Virus record (IMG/VR): IMGVR_UViG_2537561992_000022
Origin: a virus
Taxonomy: Duplodnaviria > Heunggongvirae > Uroviricota > Caudoviricetes
Length of the DNA stretch: 35,929 nt
Reading direction: 5' to 3' (one strand)
In this document: positions 589 through 18,037 of the stretch, piece after piece
Layout of the letters: every line of letters starts with the position of its first letter
Position numbering within the stretch: the first letter of the stretch is position 1
Notes under the pieces: generated by a model
What the model was told of the DNA's origin: nothing
The model's database searches: none
What the model saw: only the letters and a program-made list of their open reading frames with translations
Translations under genes and position numbers: made by a program

Positions 589-1208
589 TCAGTGGCGCCA
601 GCAGCCAGTGCCTTATCCAGACCAGAAAGTTTGTTTGCGCGACCGTATTTTTCTCCGTCCTTATCTGCGAAGAGGAAATAGAACGGCCCCTCACGCTCTA
701 CAGATGGTTCAGCTTCCGGCGCGGTTTCATTTTTTGGGATATCAGATACCTCAGTTTCCACTGCATCAGTTTGTGTTTCTGATGACTGGAGAACATCAAC
801 AGTGCCCAGGTCTGTTTCTTCATTCTCAAACACGCCCTTTGTCGTCAGGTATTCGCAGATATATTTGTTCAGTGCTACGGGATCTTTGTGAATGTCGATC
901 GGACGCTCACGGACAAGGCCAAAAATAGTTTGGCGGTCGTAGCGAAGGGCATCAGGCTGTTTGCGCATTGATGCCGAGATACGCTTCCAGTCTTCGCGGT
1001 CGTTGTCGATAACTTCTTTTTTTGCCCAGCGATGGATGCTGCCGTCAATGTTTCCGGCATCCACATCACCAGGCCAGAGAGCGTAGGCCAGTTCGTCATC
1101 CAGTGTTTTCCATGTCTGCTTGTATTCGCGATGAATGGCAGCAATGACCGGGCTGATTTTTCCTGTTGAATTTTCAGTGTACTGAGGTAGCCTGAGTTTA
1201 ACGGACAC
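525..1208 (-). CDS. hypothetical prophage early-region protein; its only start (GTG 1206-1208) lies inside the IS left terminus, so the N-terminus is probably truncated
   Basis: 227-codon ORF in the track; protein-like composition; stop at 525-527. Confidence 0.45.
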
Positions 1209-2437
1209 TCCTTCCTGAAATAGAATGGCATCAGAAGGAGCTAATAATGAGCAGAAAAACCCAACGTTACTCTAAAGAGTTCAAAGCCGAAGCTGTCAGA
1301 ACGGTTCTTGAAAATCAACTTTCGATCAGTGAAGGCGCTTCCCGATTATCTCTTCCTGAAGGCACTTTAGGACAATGGGTTACCGCCGCCAGAAAAGGGC
1401 TCGGTACTCCTGGTTCCCGCACGGTGGCTGAACTGGAATCTGAAATTCTGCAACTGCGTAAGGCGTTAAATGAAGCTCGCCTTGAGCGAGATATATTAAA
1501 AAAAGACAACAGCGTATTTTGCACAGGAGTCGCTGAAAAATACGCGTTAATCGAACAATGGCGACAACAATTTCCCATTGAAGCGATGTGTCAGGTATTT
1601 GGTGTATCCAGGAGCGGTTATTACAACTGGGTACAGCATGAACCCTCAGACAGAAAACAAAGTGATGAGCGGCTAAAACTGGAGATTAAGGTGGCACATA
1701 TCCGCACTCGCGAAACATATGGAACCCGGCGGCTCCAGACGGAGCTGGCAGAGAATGGCATCATCGTTGGTCGTGACCGACTGGCACGTCTTCGTAAGGA
1801 GCTAAGGCTACGCTGTAAGCAGAAACGCAAGTTCAGAGCGACTACGAACTCGAACCACAATCTGCCAGTTGCGCCAAATCTGCTGAACCAGACGTTCGCT
1901 CCTACAGCACCAAATCAGGTCTGGGTGGCGGACCTGACGTATGTTGCCACACAGGAGGGATGGTTGTACCTCGCTGGCATCAAAGATGTTTATACGTGCG
2001 AAATTGTCGGCTACGCCATGGGAGAGCGCATGACAAAAGAGCTGACAGGTAAAGCTCTGTTTATGGCGCTCAGGAGCCAGCGCCCACCTGCCGGGCTAAT
2101 CCACCACTCTGATCGAGGTTCACAGTACTGCGCATACGATTACCGGGTCATACAGGAGCAGTTTGGTCTGAAAACATCAATGTCGCGTAAAGGTAACTGT
2201 TACGACAACGCTCCGATGGAAAGCTTCTGGGGAACGCTGAAAAATGAGAGCCTGAGCCACTATCGTTTTAATAACCGGGATGAAGCCATCTCAGTAATAC
2301 GGGAATACATTGAGATTTTCTACAATCGTCAGCGTCGTCACTCTCGTCTGGGGAATATCTCCCCGGCAGCCTTCAGGGAAAAATATCATCAGATGGCTGC
2401 TTAAAAAAAGAACAAATGGTAGTGTCCGCTATTGCCA
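1193..2437 (+). mobile_element. IS3-family insertion sequence, about 1245 bp
   Basis: Imperfect terminal inverted repeats TGAGTTTAACGGACACT (1193-1209) and AGTGTCCGCTATTGCCA (2421-2437), TG...CA ends, enclosing a transposase ORF. Confidence 0.7.
1247..2404 (+). CDS. IS3-family transposase, single in-frame OrfAB-type fusion (385 aa)
   Basis: N-terminal HTH-like region, A7G tract at 1498-1505, then MCQVFGVSRSGYYNW and DDE/rve-like HHSDRGSQY...SRKGNCYDNAPMESF. Confidence 0.85.
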   Translation: MSRKTQRYSKEFKAEAVRTVLENQLSISEGASRLSLPEGTLGQWVTAARKGLGTPGSRTVAELESEILQLRKALNEARLERDILKKDNSVFCTGVAEKYALIEQWRQQFPIEAMCQVFGVSRSGYYNWVQHEPSDRKQSDERLKLEIKVAHIRTRETYGTRRLQTELAENGIIVGRDRLARLRKELRLRCKQKRKFRATTNSNHNLPVAPNLLNQTFAPTAPNQVWVADLTYVATQEGWLYLAGIKDVYTCEIVGYAMGERMTKELTGKALFMALRSQRPPAGLIHHSDRGSQYCAYDYRVIQEQFGLKTSMSRKGNCYDNAPMESFWGTLKNESLSHYRFNNRDEAISVIREYIEIFYNRQRRHSRLGNISPAAFREKYHQMAA

Positions 2438-3118
2438 GTACACCTCATACTGTTGATTGGCTCTGGCGCGGGCGAGATCAACAACAGACGTGTATTTTCC
2501 GGTTTCCTTGCGTTCACCTTCGCGACGTTTTTTCCAGATGCGCATCTCTGCCTGAATTTCGGGCCATTTAGCACCAGGAATACATTTATGCTTAACCCAC
2601 CCAATGGCGTGCAACTTAAGCTCCGGATACATGGCGTTAACTTCTGGCATTTTCATCAACGCTTCAACGATATGTCCGTCGAATGTTGCCATGTCTTCCT
2701 GCAACAATTCCTGTGCGCTAATAACCATATCAACGGTGATGTTTTCACATGTGTCGAACTTAACCATGACAGCGTTCTGTACTTCAGGGGCCAGCTTGTC
2801 AAAAGTGACGTTCATCGGATCGGATTCAGTCTCAACCGGGACAAAAGAAGCAGACTCCTCATCCCAGCGGTTTTCCTGCATATATTCAGCATCCCATGAA
2901 TCGAGGGCAGGGCGGGGTATGCCAGGTTTATCCTCGCAGACAATAAATTTATAAGCGCAGTCCTGAGCAGCCGGATAATGTTCCAGGAACTGCCAGTGAA
3001 ATTTTGCTCGAGCACGGCGTTCGTCGCCAGCTTCAATGGCTGTGGCTACAGCCACAGAGCCTTCTTCCCTTGTTGCCAGTTCGTCAGGAATAGCGGCGCA
3101 AATAAAGACTTTACTCAT
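2429..3118 (-). CDS. ydfE: YdfE-like prophage protein; stop codon lies inside the IS right terminus, so the C-terminus is probably IS-truncated
   Basis: 229-codon ORF with GAGG RBS upstream of the ATG at 3118; last gene of the dicB operon by position. Confidence 0.5.
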   Translation of the reverse strand: MSKVFICAAIPDELATREEGSVAVATAIEAGDERRARAKFHWQFLEHYPAAQDCAYKFIVCEDKPGIPRPALDSWDAEYMQENRWDEESASFVPVETESDPMNVTFDKLAPEVQNAVMVKFDTCENITVDMVISAQELLQEDMATFDGHIVEALMKMPEVNAMYPELKLHAIGWVKHKCIPGAKWPEIQAEMRIWKKRREGERKETGKYTSVVDLARARANQQYEVYWQ

Positions 3119-3211
3119 TTTGTTTTAACCTCATGACAGATTTAAGGATGAACAAATCCCTGCCATTGCTGGCATATAAGAATGAAACCGGATATTTATT
3201 ACGGAACTGTT

Positions 3212-3403
3212 TTAAAGACCTGCCGGGATTTCGATATTATCCTGGTGAATAACTTTATCGACCGGGTAACAGTTACCGGGAATTTTCTGTTCGGTTGCTG
3301 CAGTCATACACTCCTGCATTGTCCTGTGAACACTGACTGCAATATCAACTGGCACTCCGGAAACAAGAAAAACTGTCAGAACAAGCGCAAATGCTGAATT
3401 CAT
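3212..3403 (-). CDS. ydfD: YdfD-like small protein (63 aa) with N-terminal hydrophobic segment
   Basis: ATG at 3403 overlaps the dicB stop (ATGA overlap); MNSAFALVLTVFLVSG signal-like N-terminus; size and position match recalled YdfD. Confidence 0.6.
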   Translation of the reverse strand: MNSAFALVLTVFLVSGVPVDIAVSVHRTMQECMTAATEQKIPGNCYPVDKVIHQDNIEIPAGL

Positions 3404-3588
3404 TGTGCACATCCTTTTGGCATCAGACGTAAACGAGCCAGCATTGAAACAATGCATATTTTATTTAATAGCTCCCGTTCTTGTTTTCTCTTGTTAATGG
3501 CATCTTCAGTAAATACAGGGTTACTGATAGTGACACCAATTTCAAAACAACCTTCAGACGTATTAACGTTTGGTAATAACGTTTTCAT
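3400..3588 (-). CDS. dicB: cell-division inhibitor DicB (62 aa)
   Basis: Translation MKTLLPNVNTSEGCFEIGVTISNPVF...MPKGCAQ matches recalled DicB; lies downstream of DicF on the same strand. Confidence 0.8.
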   Translation of the reverse strand: MKTLLPNVNTSEGCFEIGVTISNPVFTEDAINKRKQERELLNKICIVSMLARLRLMPKGCAQ

Positions 3589-3757
3589 TATCGCGTCCTC
3601 AACAATGAATTTTGTGATGCAGTGCCTGGTGCCTCCAGGTGACGTTAACCAGTTAACAATTAACGTCGGATACAGAGAATCCACCCATAACACTGTTTTT
3701 GGTTTTAACTGTTCCGCGTGCGCTCAGCCGCATTCACCGCATCACAAAATTCACTTT

Positions 3758-7203: not shown

Positions 7204-7623
7204 GTGGCAAAAGTTTTTACACAAGAAGAGCGGGAAAAAATTAAAGGGCAGGTGGTGGAACTCGTACGCCAGAGTGGGCGCGAGACGTTACGACAACTGG
7301 AAGCTAAAACTGGGGCAACAAGATATCTGATGAGCGTTCTGGCCAGAGAGCTGGTTGCCAGTGGCGATGTATACAGCTCTGGTTACGGGTTATTCCCGTC
7401 TGAACAGGCGCGTAAGGACTGGCAAAACGCCCGCAAAAAACTCTCGAGGGCAAAGGTGAAGAAACCTGCTGTGGTTGATCCGGACCTTATCTGGTCATTA
7501 CCTGACGGAGAAATACGTCGCTACGACAGTCGTCTAAACATAATCTGTCGCGAGTGCCGGAAGGCAAGGAGAAGCAGGCTATTGTTAACACCAAGCTGTA
7601 ATGTCCCCTTTGAACCATTCTAA
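7204..7623 (+). CDS. hypothetical protein in the helicase-loader position; possibly truncated by the downstream IS
   Basis: 139-codon ORF; no resemblance to lambda P or DnaC that I can recognise. Confidence 0.4.
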   Translation: MAKVFTQEEREKIKGQVVELVRQSGRETLRQLEAKTGATRYLMSVLARELVASGDVYSSGYGLFPSEQARKDWQNARKKLSRAKVKKPAVVDPDLIWSLPDGEIRRYDSRLNIICRECRKARRSRLLLTPSCNVPFEPF

Positions 7624-9240
7624 AATGTCCCCAGACAATTCTCTGGGGGATTTTTCATGATCAAAGAGACTGTTACGATGAGTCATAAGGAACTCCACCG
7701 ACTTCAGATTATTCAGGAGTCAATTAATCGACATATTACTCAGGAACAAGCTGCGGCACGCATTGGCATTTCTATTCGGCAGGTTAAACGTCTGGTGCAA
7801 CGGTATAGAAATGAAGGGCCTTCTGGTCTGGTTTCCCACCGACGTGGAAAGCGTCCTAATAATTCCTTTTCTACTGAATTCAGAGCAACAGTAATTTCAC
7901 TCCTCAAAGGCCGTTACGCTGATTTTGGACCTACGTTTGCGTGCGAAAAATTGCGCGAGATACACGGTTTATCTTTATCCGTTGAAACTCTCAGAAAGTG
8001 GATGATAGAAGAGGGGTTATGGCGTGAACGCCGTCGTAAAATTGCCCGTATATATCAACGCCGCATGCGACGACCATCTTACGGTGAACTGATCCAGATT
8101 GATGGCTCACCTCATGACTGGTTTGAAAATCGAGGCCCCAGATGTACACTGATCGTTTTCATTGATGATGCCACCAGTGCGTTGATGGCGTTGCGTTTTG
8201 TGCCTGCTGAAACAACCCGGGCTTACATGGAAACCCTCCGGGGTTACCTTAATGATCATGGCGTACCGCTCGCTCTCTACTCTGATAGACACAGTATATT
8301 CAGGGTAAATAACCCAGAGCGGGAAGGTGAGCTGACCCAGTTCACTCGTGCGATAAAGACACTGGGCATCGAGCCAATCCATGCCAACAGCCCGCAGGCA
8401 AAAGGGCGGGTAGAGCGCGCCAATCAGACACTACAGGACAGGCTGGTCAAAGAAATGCGGCTTCAGAATATCAGTGATATTGAAACAGCAAATGCATGGT
8501 TGCCGACCTTTATTGAAGCCTATAACAACCGGTTCGCTACGTCGCCTCGTACTACTGATAATGCTCATCTTGATGTGCACCATTCTGAAGAGGAACTGGG
8601 TTATATCTTCAGCCTACAGGCGAAGCGCGTTCTGTCTAAAAATCTCACTTTCCAGTACAAAAGCAGTGCGTTTCAGGTACGCAGTGAGGGCCGGGGATAT
8701 CGACTTAGGCATTCGGTTGTTACTGTATGTGAGAACTTTGACGGTGAAATTAACGTTCTGTATGACGGGAAAGCGCTGGGCTGGGAAAAGTATGTTGATG
8801 GCCCGGAGCCTATACCACTGGATGATGAAAAGAGTGTCCATGAACGAGTGGATAATGCCCGTATTGATTTACGCTCAAAATACTATGTTAAATCTAAAGC
8901 TGACCATCCCTGGCTTACGCGCCGAACGCAAAGTCATCAGCAAGTTAAGCCCCCGAAGTTACCTAAAAAGAAGCCTGATCCCGATAAAATAGATTGAAAC
9001 CAAGATCGATTCGGTTGAGTGCATATCCATTCATAGGGTAGATTCTTAAGTCGCGTTTCTGATGTTCATTTTCGGGTGGTTTGTTACTTGTTTTACCGGG
9101 GATATGCCAGAAACGCGCTGAGTCAGTCTGGGCGGTGCGCGTAATGAGGCGTTATGGTAAATAGCCTATGCTAATGTCCGCTAAGAGCAAGAAGCGGAAG
9201 TTGGCAGTTTTGTGGACTGTCCCCACAAAAGTGACTACAG
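7600..9240 (+). mobile_element. IS481-like insertion element; boundaries approximate
   Basis: Transposase ORF flanked by non-coding DNA; TGTCCCCA motifs at 7626-7633 and 9219-9226 (the left one is also at 7603-7610); termini not resolved. Confidence 0.3.
7657..8997 (+). CDS. DDE transposase of rve/integrase-core type (IS481-family-like, 446 aa)
   Basis: N-terminal HTH-like region plus HANSPQAKGRVERANQTLQ motif typical of IS481/Mu-type transposases. Confidence 0.7.
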   Translation: MIKETVTMSHKELHRLQIIQESINRHITQEQAAARIGISIRQVKRLVQRYRNEGPSGLVSHRRGKRPNNSFSTEFRATVISLLKGRYADFGPTFACEKLREIHGLSLSVETLRKWMIEEGLWRERRRKIARIYQRRMRRPSYGELIQIDGSPHDWFENRGPRCTLIVFIDDATSALMALRFVPAETTRAYMETLRGYLNDHGVPLALYSDRHSIFRVNNPEREGELTQFTRAIKTLGIEPIHANSPQAKGRVERANQTLQDRLVKEMRLQNISDIETANAWLPTFIEAYNNRFATSPRTTDNAHLDVHHSEEELGYIFSLQAKRVLSKNLTFQYKSSAFQVRSEGRGYRLRHSVVTVCENFDGEINVLYDGKALGWEKYVDGPEPIPLDDEKSVHERVDNARIDLRSKYYVKSKADHPWLTRRTQSHQQVKPPKLPKKKPDPDKID

Positions 9241-11120: not shown

Positions 11121-11148
11121 AACCCGCTTCGGCGGGTTTTTGTTTTAT
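11121..11148 (+). terminator. rho-independent terminator after hokD
   Basis: CCCGC-TTCG-GCGGG hairpin followed by TTTTTGTTTT. Confidence 0.55.
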
Positions 11149-12928: not shown

Positions 12929-13570
12929 ATGAACCTTGAAGCCTTACCAAAATATTACTCCCCAAAATCTCCAAAATTGAGCGATGACGCTCCAGCGACA
13001 GGCACCGGTTGTTTAACAATTACGGATGTAATGGCAGCGCAGGGGATGGTGCAGTCGAAAGCACCACTTGGGTTGGCCTTATTTCTGGCAAAAGTTGGTG
13101 TTCAGGACCCTCAGTTTGCGATTGAAGGCCTGCTAAATTACGCGATGGCACTGGATAACCCGACATTGAACAAATTGAGTGAAGAAATCCGGTTACAGAT
13201 TATTCCTTACCTCGTGAATTTTGCCTTTGCTGATTACTCCAGGTCTGCGGCAAGTAAGGCTCGCTGTGAGCATTGTTCAGGTACGGGATTTTATAATGTA
13301 TTGCGCGAAGTGGTGAAACACTACCGACGCGGGGAATCTGTAATCAAGGAAGAATGGGTGAAGGAACTATGTCAGCATTGCCATGGTAAGGGTGAAGTCA
13401 GCACAGCGTGCAGAGGGTGTAAGGGTAAAGGGATTGTTCTGGATGAAAAAGAACCCGGTTTCATGGCGTACCGGTATATAAGATTTGTGGGCGTTGTAAT
13501 GGAAACCGGTTTAGTCGTTTACCGACCACGCTGGCACGACGTCATGTCCAGAAGCTGGTACCAGACCTGA
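12929..13570 (+). CDS. quuQ: late antiterminator Q (phage 82/21 type, CxxCxGxG zinc-finger repeats); apparently frameshifted, C-terminal 76 codons continue in another frame to 13680
   Basis: GGAGA RBS and ATG at 12929; three CxxCxGxG repeats in frame, a fourth (CGRCNGNR) in the alternative frame after the A5 run at 13446-13450. Confidence 0.7.
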   Translation: MNLEALPKYYSPKSPKLSDDAPATGTGCLTITDVMAAQGMVQSKAPLGLALFLAKVGVQDPQFAIEGLLNYAMALDNPTLNKLSEEIRLQIIPYLVNFAFADYSRSAASKARCEHCSGTGFYNVLREVVKHYRRGESVIKEEWVKELCQHCHGKGEVSTACRGCKGKGIVLDEKEPGFMAYRYIRFVGVVMETGLVVYRPRWHDVMSRSWYQT

Positions 13571-16115: not shown

Positions 16116-17138
<1,023 letters not shown>

Positions 17139-17941: not shown

Positions 17942-18037
17942 CTTGGTATCTATTCGATGGATACTCACATACTACGGTAACATCATGAAAAAAATCATAG
18001 TTTTTTTAACTCTGAACCAGCAGTGGTAGTGCCAGCG

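Follow-up and report, generated by a model that had tools for sequence, protein, structure and literature searches.

A single extra adenine that fuses orfA and orfB in an IS600 copy of Escherichia coli EPECa14 is probably a consensus error

The window analyzed here, a stretch of 35,929 nucleotides that represents the whole of contig ADUN01000041.1 in the draft assembly (GCA_000188755.2; WGS ADUN01) of E. coli EPECa14, contains an IS600 element in which one extra adenine, A1506 on the plus strand, brings orfB in frame with orfA. In the sequence as it stands the two frames are indeed fused, with no change in the length of a homopolymer, and A1506 is probably an error in the draft consensus that is not in the DNA of the strain.

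Apart from this base, the element is an ordinary and well-known IS600, a member of the IS3 family that was first described from Shigella sonnei. It occupies positions 1183 to 2447 on the plus strand and is 1,265 bp long, compared to a canonical length of 1,264 bp. Its terminal inverted repeats are imperfect 27-nt arms on either side (plus strand; left, 1183 to 1209, starting with 5'-TG; right, 2421 to 2447, finishing with CA-3'), which a repeat search of the window found to be complementary at 19 of 27 positions (70%). The flanks read as a 3-bp target-site duplication, TAC, at 1180 to 1182 and 2448 to 2450. The sequence matches the IS600 copies of E. coli O26 strains RM10386 and 11368 at 1,264 of 1,265 positions, and both of these copies are annotated as [quoted passage not shown] (WP_085948186.1). 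This near-identity bears out the assignment to the IS3 family made in a first-pass annotation, but the span proposed there, 1193 to 2437, has to be extended to the ends set by the inverted repeats and the TAC duplication. A promoter scan yielded a single consensus match (TTAACG-17-TAGAAT, 1198 to 1226), with no excess over shuffled sequences.

ORF calling and sequence comparison reveal an uninterrupted reading frame of 385 amino acids (1247 to 2404, plus strand), with a GGAG Shine-Dalgarno sequence at 1237 to 1240, that equals canonical OrfAB except for S87D, the sole residue difference. Pfam searches of the product detect HTH_Tnp_1 at residues 3 to 75 (E = 1.9e-23), HTH_21, and an rve/DDE domain at residues 220 to 318 (E = 5.9e-26), and the putative DDE codons, assigned by visual comparison with the motif of the IS3 family, are 1931 to 1933 (D229), 2111 to 2113 (D289), and 2219 to 2221 (E325). 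The first-pass annotation was thus right that the transposase, as written, is an in-frame OrfA-OrfB fusion that reads through the A7G tract into the DDE domain: adenines fill positions 1498 to 1504, guanine occupies 1505, and a single ORF spans them. The motif is found a single time in the window and is absent from shuffled sequences. Also as described there, the +1 frame past the A run encodes KKTTAYFAQESLKNTR followed by a stop. This TAA (1548 to 1550, plus strand) ends the 100-amino-acid orfA of canonical IS600 and here lies unused in the +1 frame; the tail that had been taken for that of a canonical OrfA is not identical to the reference tail, which reads KKATAYF... and not KKTTAYF....

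In canonical IS600, ribosomes would make OrfAB through programmed −1 slippage on A_AAA_AAA, with G as the next base and with the help of a downstream hairpin, and the regulator OrfA would result when no shift occurs. The heptamer lies in the orfA frame at 1498 to 1504 (plus strand), immediately before G1505, and its computed frame offset marks it as a canonical programmed −1 frameshift site. Frameshifting at this site is expected by analogy with other members of the family, and the derived product of a −1 slip (…DILKK-SNSVF…) matches exactly the proteins that NCBI lists as "IS3-like element IS600 family transposase." RNA folding predicts a hairpin 3' of the slippery site at 1508 to 1548 (plus strand), with a strong 9-bp stem (1512 to 1520 paired with 1537 to 1545) and a free energy of −13.1 kcal/mol; the canonical and window versions fold alike (z-scores from −1.8 to −2.9), and the predicted structure would be a likely frameshift stimulator. 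A match to the Rfam ALIL pseudoknot at 1511 to 1613 scores 14.3 bits (E = 0.57), below the gathering score of 50. As written, this copy departs from the two-ORF layout of the IS3 family in having one continuous ORF, with the heptamer still present, and taking out base 1506 brings that layout back (orfA in frame 0, orfB in frame −1). Because the departure hangs on one doubtful base, it leaves membership in IS600 unquestioned.

The identity of the extra base emerges from comparison with reference copies. All three reference IS600 copies compared, each annotated with a programmed frameshift, carry the identical A7G tract followed by CAACAGC, and two of them differ from the window solely in being without A1506, which falls between G1505 and C1507. 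It had been proposed instead that the canonical run consists of six adenines and that this copy gained a seventh, either by mutation or by a run-length error. Removal of one A from the window does formally produce A_AAA_AAG with orfB in the −1 frame, an arrangement that looks canonical from the sequence alone. However, A7 is the state of the three annotated E. coli copies and of 141 motif matches in viral loci, the conceptual OrfAB at NCBI agrees with slippage on A_AAA_AAA, and the A6 copies that are known appear broken, with an OrfA' of 95 amino acids. The smallest change that turns the reference into the window sequence is an A inserted between G and C. A canonical A6G tract has next to no probability and is ruled out by the reference copies and by this minimal edit. 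One extra base does fuse the frames, as the first-pass annotation had held, but that base is A1506, after the G, and not the seventh A of the run. By its own account, a shared A7 run together with a single ORF in all reference copies would have refuted it; they share the run, but they have two ORFs.

The variant with A1506 is confined to the source contig in every collection searched. When an 81-mer containing A1506 was compared to 5,426 complete E. coli genomes, the best full-length matches, at 7,368 places, all contained a 1-base gap, and the same held for the best full-length matches in 72,556 plasmids, 130 Shigella records included. An exact, unfiltered scan with a 33-mer containing A1506 gave no matches among viral contigs, genome contigs, or metagenome contigs, whereas a canonical 32-mer used as a control matched more than 120 viral loci. 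Filtered BLAST with 40-mers of the A1506 and A8 variants against E. coli genomes also found nothing, but carries no weight, because a canonical 39-mer was missed as well, its seeding blocked by the low-complexity filter. The protein with D87 is missing from about 15 billion proteins, among which canonical OrfAB and OrfA were both found, but the absence of the exact 385-amino-acid product is due in part to the NCBI gene call on the source contig, a 237-amino-acid OrfB fragment, and is to that degree weaker evidence. The IS600 tract is itself indel-prone in other public assemblies: viral contigs include 13 copies with A6 and 3 with A8, several of which share one source genome.

The insertion is also private to EPECa14. 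The element interrupts a YdfE-like exonuclease gene on the minus strand, whose 5' part (2429 to 3118; Pfam YdfE_N and YdfE_C) reaches into the end of the IS and whose 3' part (1 to 1182) contains a T6-to-T5 contraction at 557 and is cut off by the end of the contig. The intact homologue in E. coli O26:H11 11368 is WP_000048369.1, and an empty site within an unbroken exonuclease gene is present in all four relatives compared (O26:H11 11368, UTAK-23, 20.1, and 96_1414B). BLAST searches over the junction for the same insertion elsewhere gave split matches only, an exact 32-mer across the junction had no matches in three collections, and a 229-amino-acid product specific to the insertion was found on the source contig only. 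On this basis the insertion is judged to be recent: an IS600 copy would have entered the exonuclease gene of a Qin/Rac-type prophage in EPECa14 and generated the TAC duplication.

The remainder of the contig provides a context in which to evaluate the extra base. Compared with four independent O26-type assemblies, the window outside the IS has five homopolymers that are one base shorter and no more than two substitutions. These contractions, at 557, 11143, 13446, 16721, and 18001, each fall in an A or T run 5 to 8 bases long; of the four 8-base runs, two have lost a base, and runs of at least 5 bases comprise 2.9% of the sequence, yet contain all five deletions. At least three of the five break conserved genes, truncating ydfT from 250 to 213 amino acids, rzpQ from 165 to 41, and ynfN from 76 to 14. 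Each contraction is contradicted by the four other assemblies, and three are contradicted by a further draft (L146). The view that all five are private errors is weakened by the contraction in ydfT (A6 to A5, at 13446), which is also present in four independent samples of other, divergent backgrounds. The substitutions, at 3725 and 3731, were considered as a lineage marker and are uninformative, matching an allele common in paralogous prophages.

These features resemble those of flow-based sequencing, the presumed source of the EPECa14 assembly. ADUN01 would be a 454 assembly, in line with the sequencing center's drafts of 2010 to 2011; no description of the sequencing method for EPECa14 or ADUN01 was found in the literature searched. 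On the minus strand, GTTG-C-T7 has become GTTG-T-C-T7, such that the extra T lies one base ahead of the T7 run. Carry-forward insertion is a documented pattern of pyrosequencing error (Huse et al. 2007, PMC2323236), and A1506, read on the minus strand as GTTG[T]C-T7, agrees with its definition: the inserted base copies a nearby homopolymer and precedes it, with one base between. The undercalled homopolymers at other sites in the contig are likewise as in pyrosequencing. The published pattern is described per single read (PMC2323236), whereas A1506 would have had to reach the consensus of an assembly whose platform is presumed. If the error arose in this manner, flow-based sequencing adjoining a long homopolymer would have added A1506 to the consensus, and the true EPECa14 copy would keep the ordinary two-ORF, frameshift-controlled layout. 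The caveat in the first-pass annotation that a homopolymer error could be involved was apt in that a sequencing error probably accounts for A1506, though not through a change in run length.

Several observations weigh against a consensus error. A1506 is the lone insertion among six private indels and is itself no run-length change; an error in the consensus requires support from most reads; the recurrence of A5 in ydfT indicates that such indels need not all be errors; and the attribution to the 454 platform is presumptive. Moreover, the product is only one residue removed from functional OrfAB, so that a real mutation would be viable. A genuine private +1 insertion, with which all ribosomes would make OrfAB(S87D) and no OrfA unless they slip, is nonetheless rather unlikely. 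In its favor, the lesion goes beyond a mere miscall of run length, the 385-amino-acid ORF is intact with all its domains, the heptamer and hairpin are unaltered with a spacer just 1 nt longer, the insertion site is private to EPECa14 and hence recent, and in-frame IS600 occurs in nature as a 17-nt deletion variant in 461 genomes. How much an element transposes is also determined by how much frameshifting occurs, and a cis preference of about 200-fold is seen for the OrfAB of IS911 (reviewed in PMC5009743). But the variant did not occur a second time in any collection searched, and, because the IS copy is young and A1506 is its sole difference from the O26 copies, there was little time for a real mutation, which would have had to arise within the 64-nt overlap and in a very brief interval, in a contig with five other private homopolymer indels compared to two substitutions. 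Nor is a fusion needed to account for a new insertion: canonical IS600 makes private new insertions unaided, as at another site in the same prophage in 96_1414B, and reaches up to 43 places in some genomes, whereas the fused 17-nt deletion copy shows no proliferation (469 places in 461 genomes). The proposal that this copy has lost frameshift control is thus unlikely to be real, given the five other private homopolymer indels and the carry-forward form of the extra base.

That all six private indels are real, with EPECa14 deriving from a mismatch-repair-deficient lineage that accumulates frameshifts in runs, is very improbable. The indels cluster in runs of A and T, and one of them recurs in other strains, both consistent with a mutator. 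Mutation-accumulation work has established that mutator spectra are dominated by transitions. The contig, however, has six indels against two substitutions, both of which represent a common paralogous prophage allele, and it is this ratio that ranks a mutator low; in addition, all five run changes are contractions, and A1506 is outside any run.

If A1506 were nonetheless real, a −1 slip on the heptamer would yield a 96-amino-acid OrfA-like protein with an aberrant tail (RQQRILHRSR), and the ratio of the two products would be inverted. Given the preference of IS3-family transposases for action in cis, hyperactivity of such a copy is conceivable and could explain its sighting as a new insertion. 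The copy would then be a natural counterpart to the constitutive OrfAB mutants made in the laboratory and a possible source of IS bursts, and would offer a natural test of the restraint that OrfA and frameshift efficiency place on IS600 in its native host. Even so, a genuine fusion of the frames would count as a minor variant, since in-frame IS600 is already common in databases, apparently without proliferation. A consensus error, the preferred explanation, has a broader implication. The slippery tracts of the IS3 family are homopolymers and so lie exactly where homopolymer-sensitive sequencing gives indel errors, and one wrong base in such a tract can make a frameshift-controlled gene pair look like a constitutive fusion or, in the case of the A6 copies, like a pseudogene. 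Claims of lost frameshift control therefore need comparison with the rest of the contig and with the reads.

Fusions of orfA and orfB are known from several other settings. The engineered constitutive OrfAB versions of IS911, IS3, IS150, and ISSau2, made through the addition of a base in the slippery run, resemble this copy in joining the frames and supplying OrfAB without OrfA; they are laboratory constructs with measured activity, whereas the copy in the window is known from its sequence and its extra base is doubtful. In the engineered systems, transposase activity resides in OrfAB and is damped by OrfA or OrfB (PMC5771124; PMC5009743). Among natural elements, the 17-nt deletion variant of IS600 encodes a 379-amino-acid "IS3 family transposase" (WP_000088357.1 and WP_000088351.1) and occupies 469 places in 461 of the 5,426 complete genomes, nearly always as a single copy and, in all three genomes examined, upstream of the same BCCT transporter gene. 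Like the copy in the window, it is a complete element with both inverted repeats and has orfA and orfB in one frame with no need of a frameshift, but its fusion stems from a deletion that removes the hairpin's 5' arm along with some of the slippery tract, and not from an added base. The junction of that deletion, GATATATTAAA|TTGCACAGG, is missing from the window, in which the A7G tract is complete and the 5' hairpin arm is still in place. The A8 variants (IMG/VR L093, L120, and L131), as assembled, also gain an uninterrupted 385-amino-acid ORF from one added base, but in these the base is added within the run and the product is exactly canonical OrfAB, with S87. With the reference IS600 of strains 11368 and RM10386, the element described here has in common its ends, 27-nt inverted repeats, 3-bp duplication length, A7G tract, and hairpin, and it differs in that the 100-amino-acid orfA and the orfB in the −1 frame are replaced, via the extra A1506, by a single ORF of 385 amino acids.

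The insertion sequence in the window is an ordinary IS600 element at a new site. It spans positions 1183-2447 (+; 1265 bp), about 10 bp further out on each side than the first-pass annotation had placed its limits, and is bounded by imperfect terminal inverted repeats of 27 nt at 1183-1209 (starting with TG) and 2421-2447 (ending with CA), the arms of which are complementary at 19 of 27 positions. A 3-bp direct repeat, TAC, flanks the element at 1180-1182 and 2448-2450. Its sole long ORF (1247-2404, +; 385 aa) contains an N-terminal HTH_Tnp_1 domain, an HTH_21 domain, and an rve (DDE integrase-core) domain. As that annotation reported, the ORF continues without a break through the A7G tract at 1498-1505 into the DDE domain, and the +1 frame past the A-run reads KKTTAYFAQESLKNTR-stop. 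Exact protein matches show that the window is contig ADUN01000041.1 (35,929 bp) in full, from the E. coli EPECa14 assembly GCA_000188755.2. The deposited annotation of this source contig calls a 237-aa OrfB fragment only (L144 10715-11428, corresponding to 1691-2404), leaving the 385-aa ORF uncalled. By megablast, the element is matched in 3,487 of 5,426 complete E. coli genomes, where it is labeled "IS3-like element IS600 family transposase" and the CDS of the transposase gene is given in two pieces with a programmed frameshift. In each of the 30 matches listed, 1264 query bases align with 1263 bases of the record.

The deposited sequence does contain the frame fusion, which hinges on one base. 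In a base-by-base alignment of the window with three reference IS600 copies, a single position, outside the A-run, distinguishes the window from the copies of the O26 strains RM10386 and 11368: reference IS600 reads TTAAAAAAAG-CAACAGC, and the window reads TTAAAAAAAGACAACAGC, in which G1505 and C1507 are separated by an additional A (1506). Read in the canonical orfA frame (TTA AAA AAA GCA), the slippery heptamer is A_AAA_AAA. Canonical OrfA comprises 100 aa (C-terminus …DILKKATAYFAQESLKNTR) and was found on at least 1000 contigs. The canonical OrfAB that we derived in silico by a -1 slip comprises 385 aa (…DILKK-SNSVF…) and has an exact match among the NCBI "IS3-like element IS600 family transposase" proteins; S87D is the sole difference between it and the window ORF. 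orfA and orfB overlap by 64 nt, and a +1 indel within that stretch would fuse the frames.

The A1506 variant was found on no other sequence in the collections searched. Of the 7,368 IS600 places in complete E. coli genomes and the 1,194 places on plasmids (a set with 130 Shigella records), none matched an 81-mer centered on 1506 perfectly over its full length, and all top matches in both sets contained a one-base gap. An exact 33-mer with GAC at 1505-1507 had no match in viral, genome, and metagenome contig collections, and the canonical 32-mer that served as a positive control matched more than 120 viral-contig loci. No protein identical to the 385-aa product occurs among about 15 billion, which is weaker evidence than it appears, since the source contig's own gene call is the 237-aa OrfB fragment.

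Beyond the IS, comparison of the window with 11368 shows 2 substitutions and 5 single-base deletions, and all five deletions shorten a homopolymer of A or T: T6 to T5 at 557, T5 to T4 at 11143, A6 to A5 at 13446, A8 to A7 at 16721, and T8 to T7 at 18001. Runs of at least 5 bases make up only 2.9% of the sequence, and the region has four 8-base runs, two of which are shortened. At all five sites and at 1506, the window is contradicted by four independent assemblies (11368, UTAK-23, 20.1, and 96_1414B) that do not differ from one another there; a fifth (L146) sides with them at 11143, 16721, and 18001. Contractions truncate ydfT (antiterminator; 12929-13570) from 250 to 213 aa, rzpQ (from 16642) from 165 to 41 aa, and ynfN (from 17985) from 76 to 14 aa, and a deletion shifts the frame of the exonuclease remnant. 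The substitutions at 3725 and 3731, both T-to-C relative to the O26 reference prophage and 6 bp apart, give the allele common at paralogous prophage loci of the same genomes, which suggests either gene conversion between paralogous prophages or assembly cross-talk.

The A5 state of ydfT, which gives the same 213-aa product, is also present in the NCBI draft GCA_014808725.1 and in Logan assemblies of the read sets ERR4561772, SRR11410517, and SRR12298928 (loci L146-L149), on backgrounds 5 to 9 substitutions per 1-2 kb from the window, and a related 213-aa variant is present on 58 contigs. The run at 13446 is a recurrent frameshift hotspot in this Qin-type antiterminator gene. Because the A5 state recurs elsewhere as a real polymorphism, the deletion at 13446 is not a certain error here.

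The ADUN01 draft dates from 2011 and was presumably made from 454 data. A run-length miscall was rejected as the source of A1506, since the added base lies outside the run. On the minus strand, GTTG-C-TTTTTTT becomes GTTG-T-C-TTTTTTT, which places an added T before the T7 run with one base between them. The same insertion pattern was described for pyrosequencing by Huse et al. 2007 (example, GACTGGG to GACGTGGG; PMC2323236), and carry-forward and incomplete-extension effects also occur in Titanium chemistry (Gilles et al. 2011; PMC3116506).

A1506 is probably a sequencing artefact: a base unique to this contig and adjoining the longest kind of homopolymer, it matches a documented pattern of sequencing error, on a contig with five other indels that resemble errors. 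It is unlikely, albeit with an appreciable chance, that A1506 is a real private mutation. The window has 6 private indels, all at or adjoining A or T runs, and 0 to 2 private substitutions; this indel-heavy profile is that of homopolymer-sensitive sequencing and not that of divergence between close relatives, and we consider it very improbable that the indels come from a mutator lineage. The first-pass annotation had attributed the fusion to one A gained within a canonical A6 run. Canonical IS600 already has A7G and the added base is A1506; therefore, that model is wrong and retains next to no probability.

Apart from the IS, the window consists of a lambdoid prophage of the Qin/Rac type; E. 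coli O26:H11 11368 and many relatives carry a practically identical one. IS600 splits a YdfE-like prophage exonuclease gene (1-1182 and 2448-3118, -), whose intact homologue, WP_000048369.1, has 823 aa. BLAST across the IS/prophage junction gave no continuous match, an exact junction 32-mer had no match in three collections, and an insertion-specific 229-aa ORF is confined to contig ADUN01000041.1. Since 11368 and its relatives have an intact exonuclease gene and no insert at this site, the insertion is recent and, among all collections searched, private to EPECa14. E. coli 96_1414B carries an independent canonical IS600 in the same prophage (L127 8387-9650, between ydfW and flxA), so wild-type IS600 is actively producing new private insertions in this lineage. 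Elsewhere in the prophage, a 439-aa ORF (7678-8997, +) with HTH and rve_3 matches corresponds to what is annotated in the O26 reference prophage as a truncated IS1202-like ISEsa1 transposase; nearby genes for RelB, HokD, Rem, and cold-shock proteins are typical of a Qin-like cryptic prophage.

The hairpin 3' of the heptamer (1508-1548, +; strong 9-bp stem at 1512-1520/1537-1545) has a predicted fold of -13.1 kcal/mol that is the same in the window and canonical versions, and A1506 changes nothing in the signal except the heptamer-hairpin spacer, which gains one base. The ALIL pseudoknot, a frameshift stimulator of the IS3 family, has a sub-threshold Rfam match (RF01497) directly 3' of the slippery site (1511-1613, +; 14.3 bits versus a gathering threshold of 50; E = 0.57), a lead rather than evidence that the IS600 stimulator may be of ALIL type instead of a simple hairpin. 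If A1506 were real, every ribosome would produce OrfAB(S87D), and ribosomes still slipping -1 would yield a 96-aa OrfA-like protein with the tail RQQRILHRSR. According to reviews, frameshifting joins DNA-binding OrfA to catalytic OrfB, the extent of frameshifting determines how much transposition occurs, and the IS911 transposase acts about 200-fold better in cis (PMC5009743); in ISSau2, OrfAB-driven transposition is lowered by OrfA and also by OrfB (PMC5771124).

Exact scans of viral contigs recovered slippery tracts of A6 at 13 loci and of A8 at 3, versus 141 canonical matches in the loci fetched. The A8 copies (IMG/VR contigs L093 9275, L120 7393, and L131 6441) read as uninterrupted 385-aa ORFs identical to canonical OrfAB, and the A6 copies (IMG/VR contigs L096 and L132-L143) read as broken elements. 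Several of these run-length variants share one source genome, and in other assemblies the tract appears prone to error or mutation.

Among the members of canonical OrfAB's 90% cluster are 379-aa proteins, taken from gene-caller sources, with the sequence …ERDIL-N-CTGVAEKY…. The DNA behind them is IS600 minus 17 nt; the deletion takes out the 5' arm of the hairpin together with some of the slippery tract, fusing the frames. The copies in E. coli 503025 and O104:H4 FDAARGOS_349 (L128 and L129, both 2228-3474; ORF WP_000088357.1/WP_000088351.1) are complete, with 1247 bp, both inverted repeats, and one substitution, and a third (L130 2271-3474) has had its first 43 bp removed by IS1. The three genomes examined all have the element upstream of one and the same BCCT transporter gene. 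A junction-specific 40-mer occurs in 461 of 5,426 complete E. coli genomes at 469 places (median, one per genome), nearly always as a single copy; therefore, a naturally fused IS600 transposase is already catalogued, and the element that encodes it has not proliferated. Even if real, A1506 would be a small variant of a kind already known.
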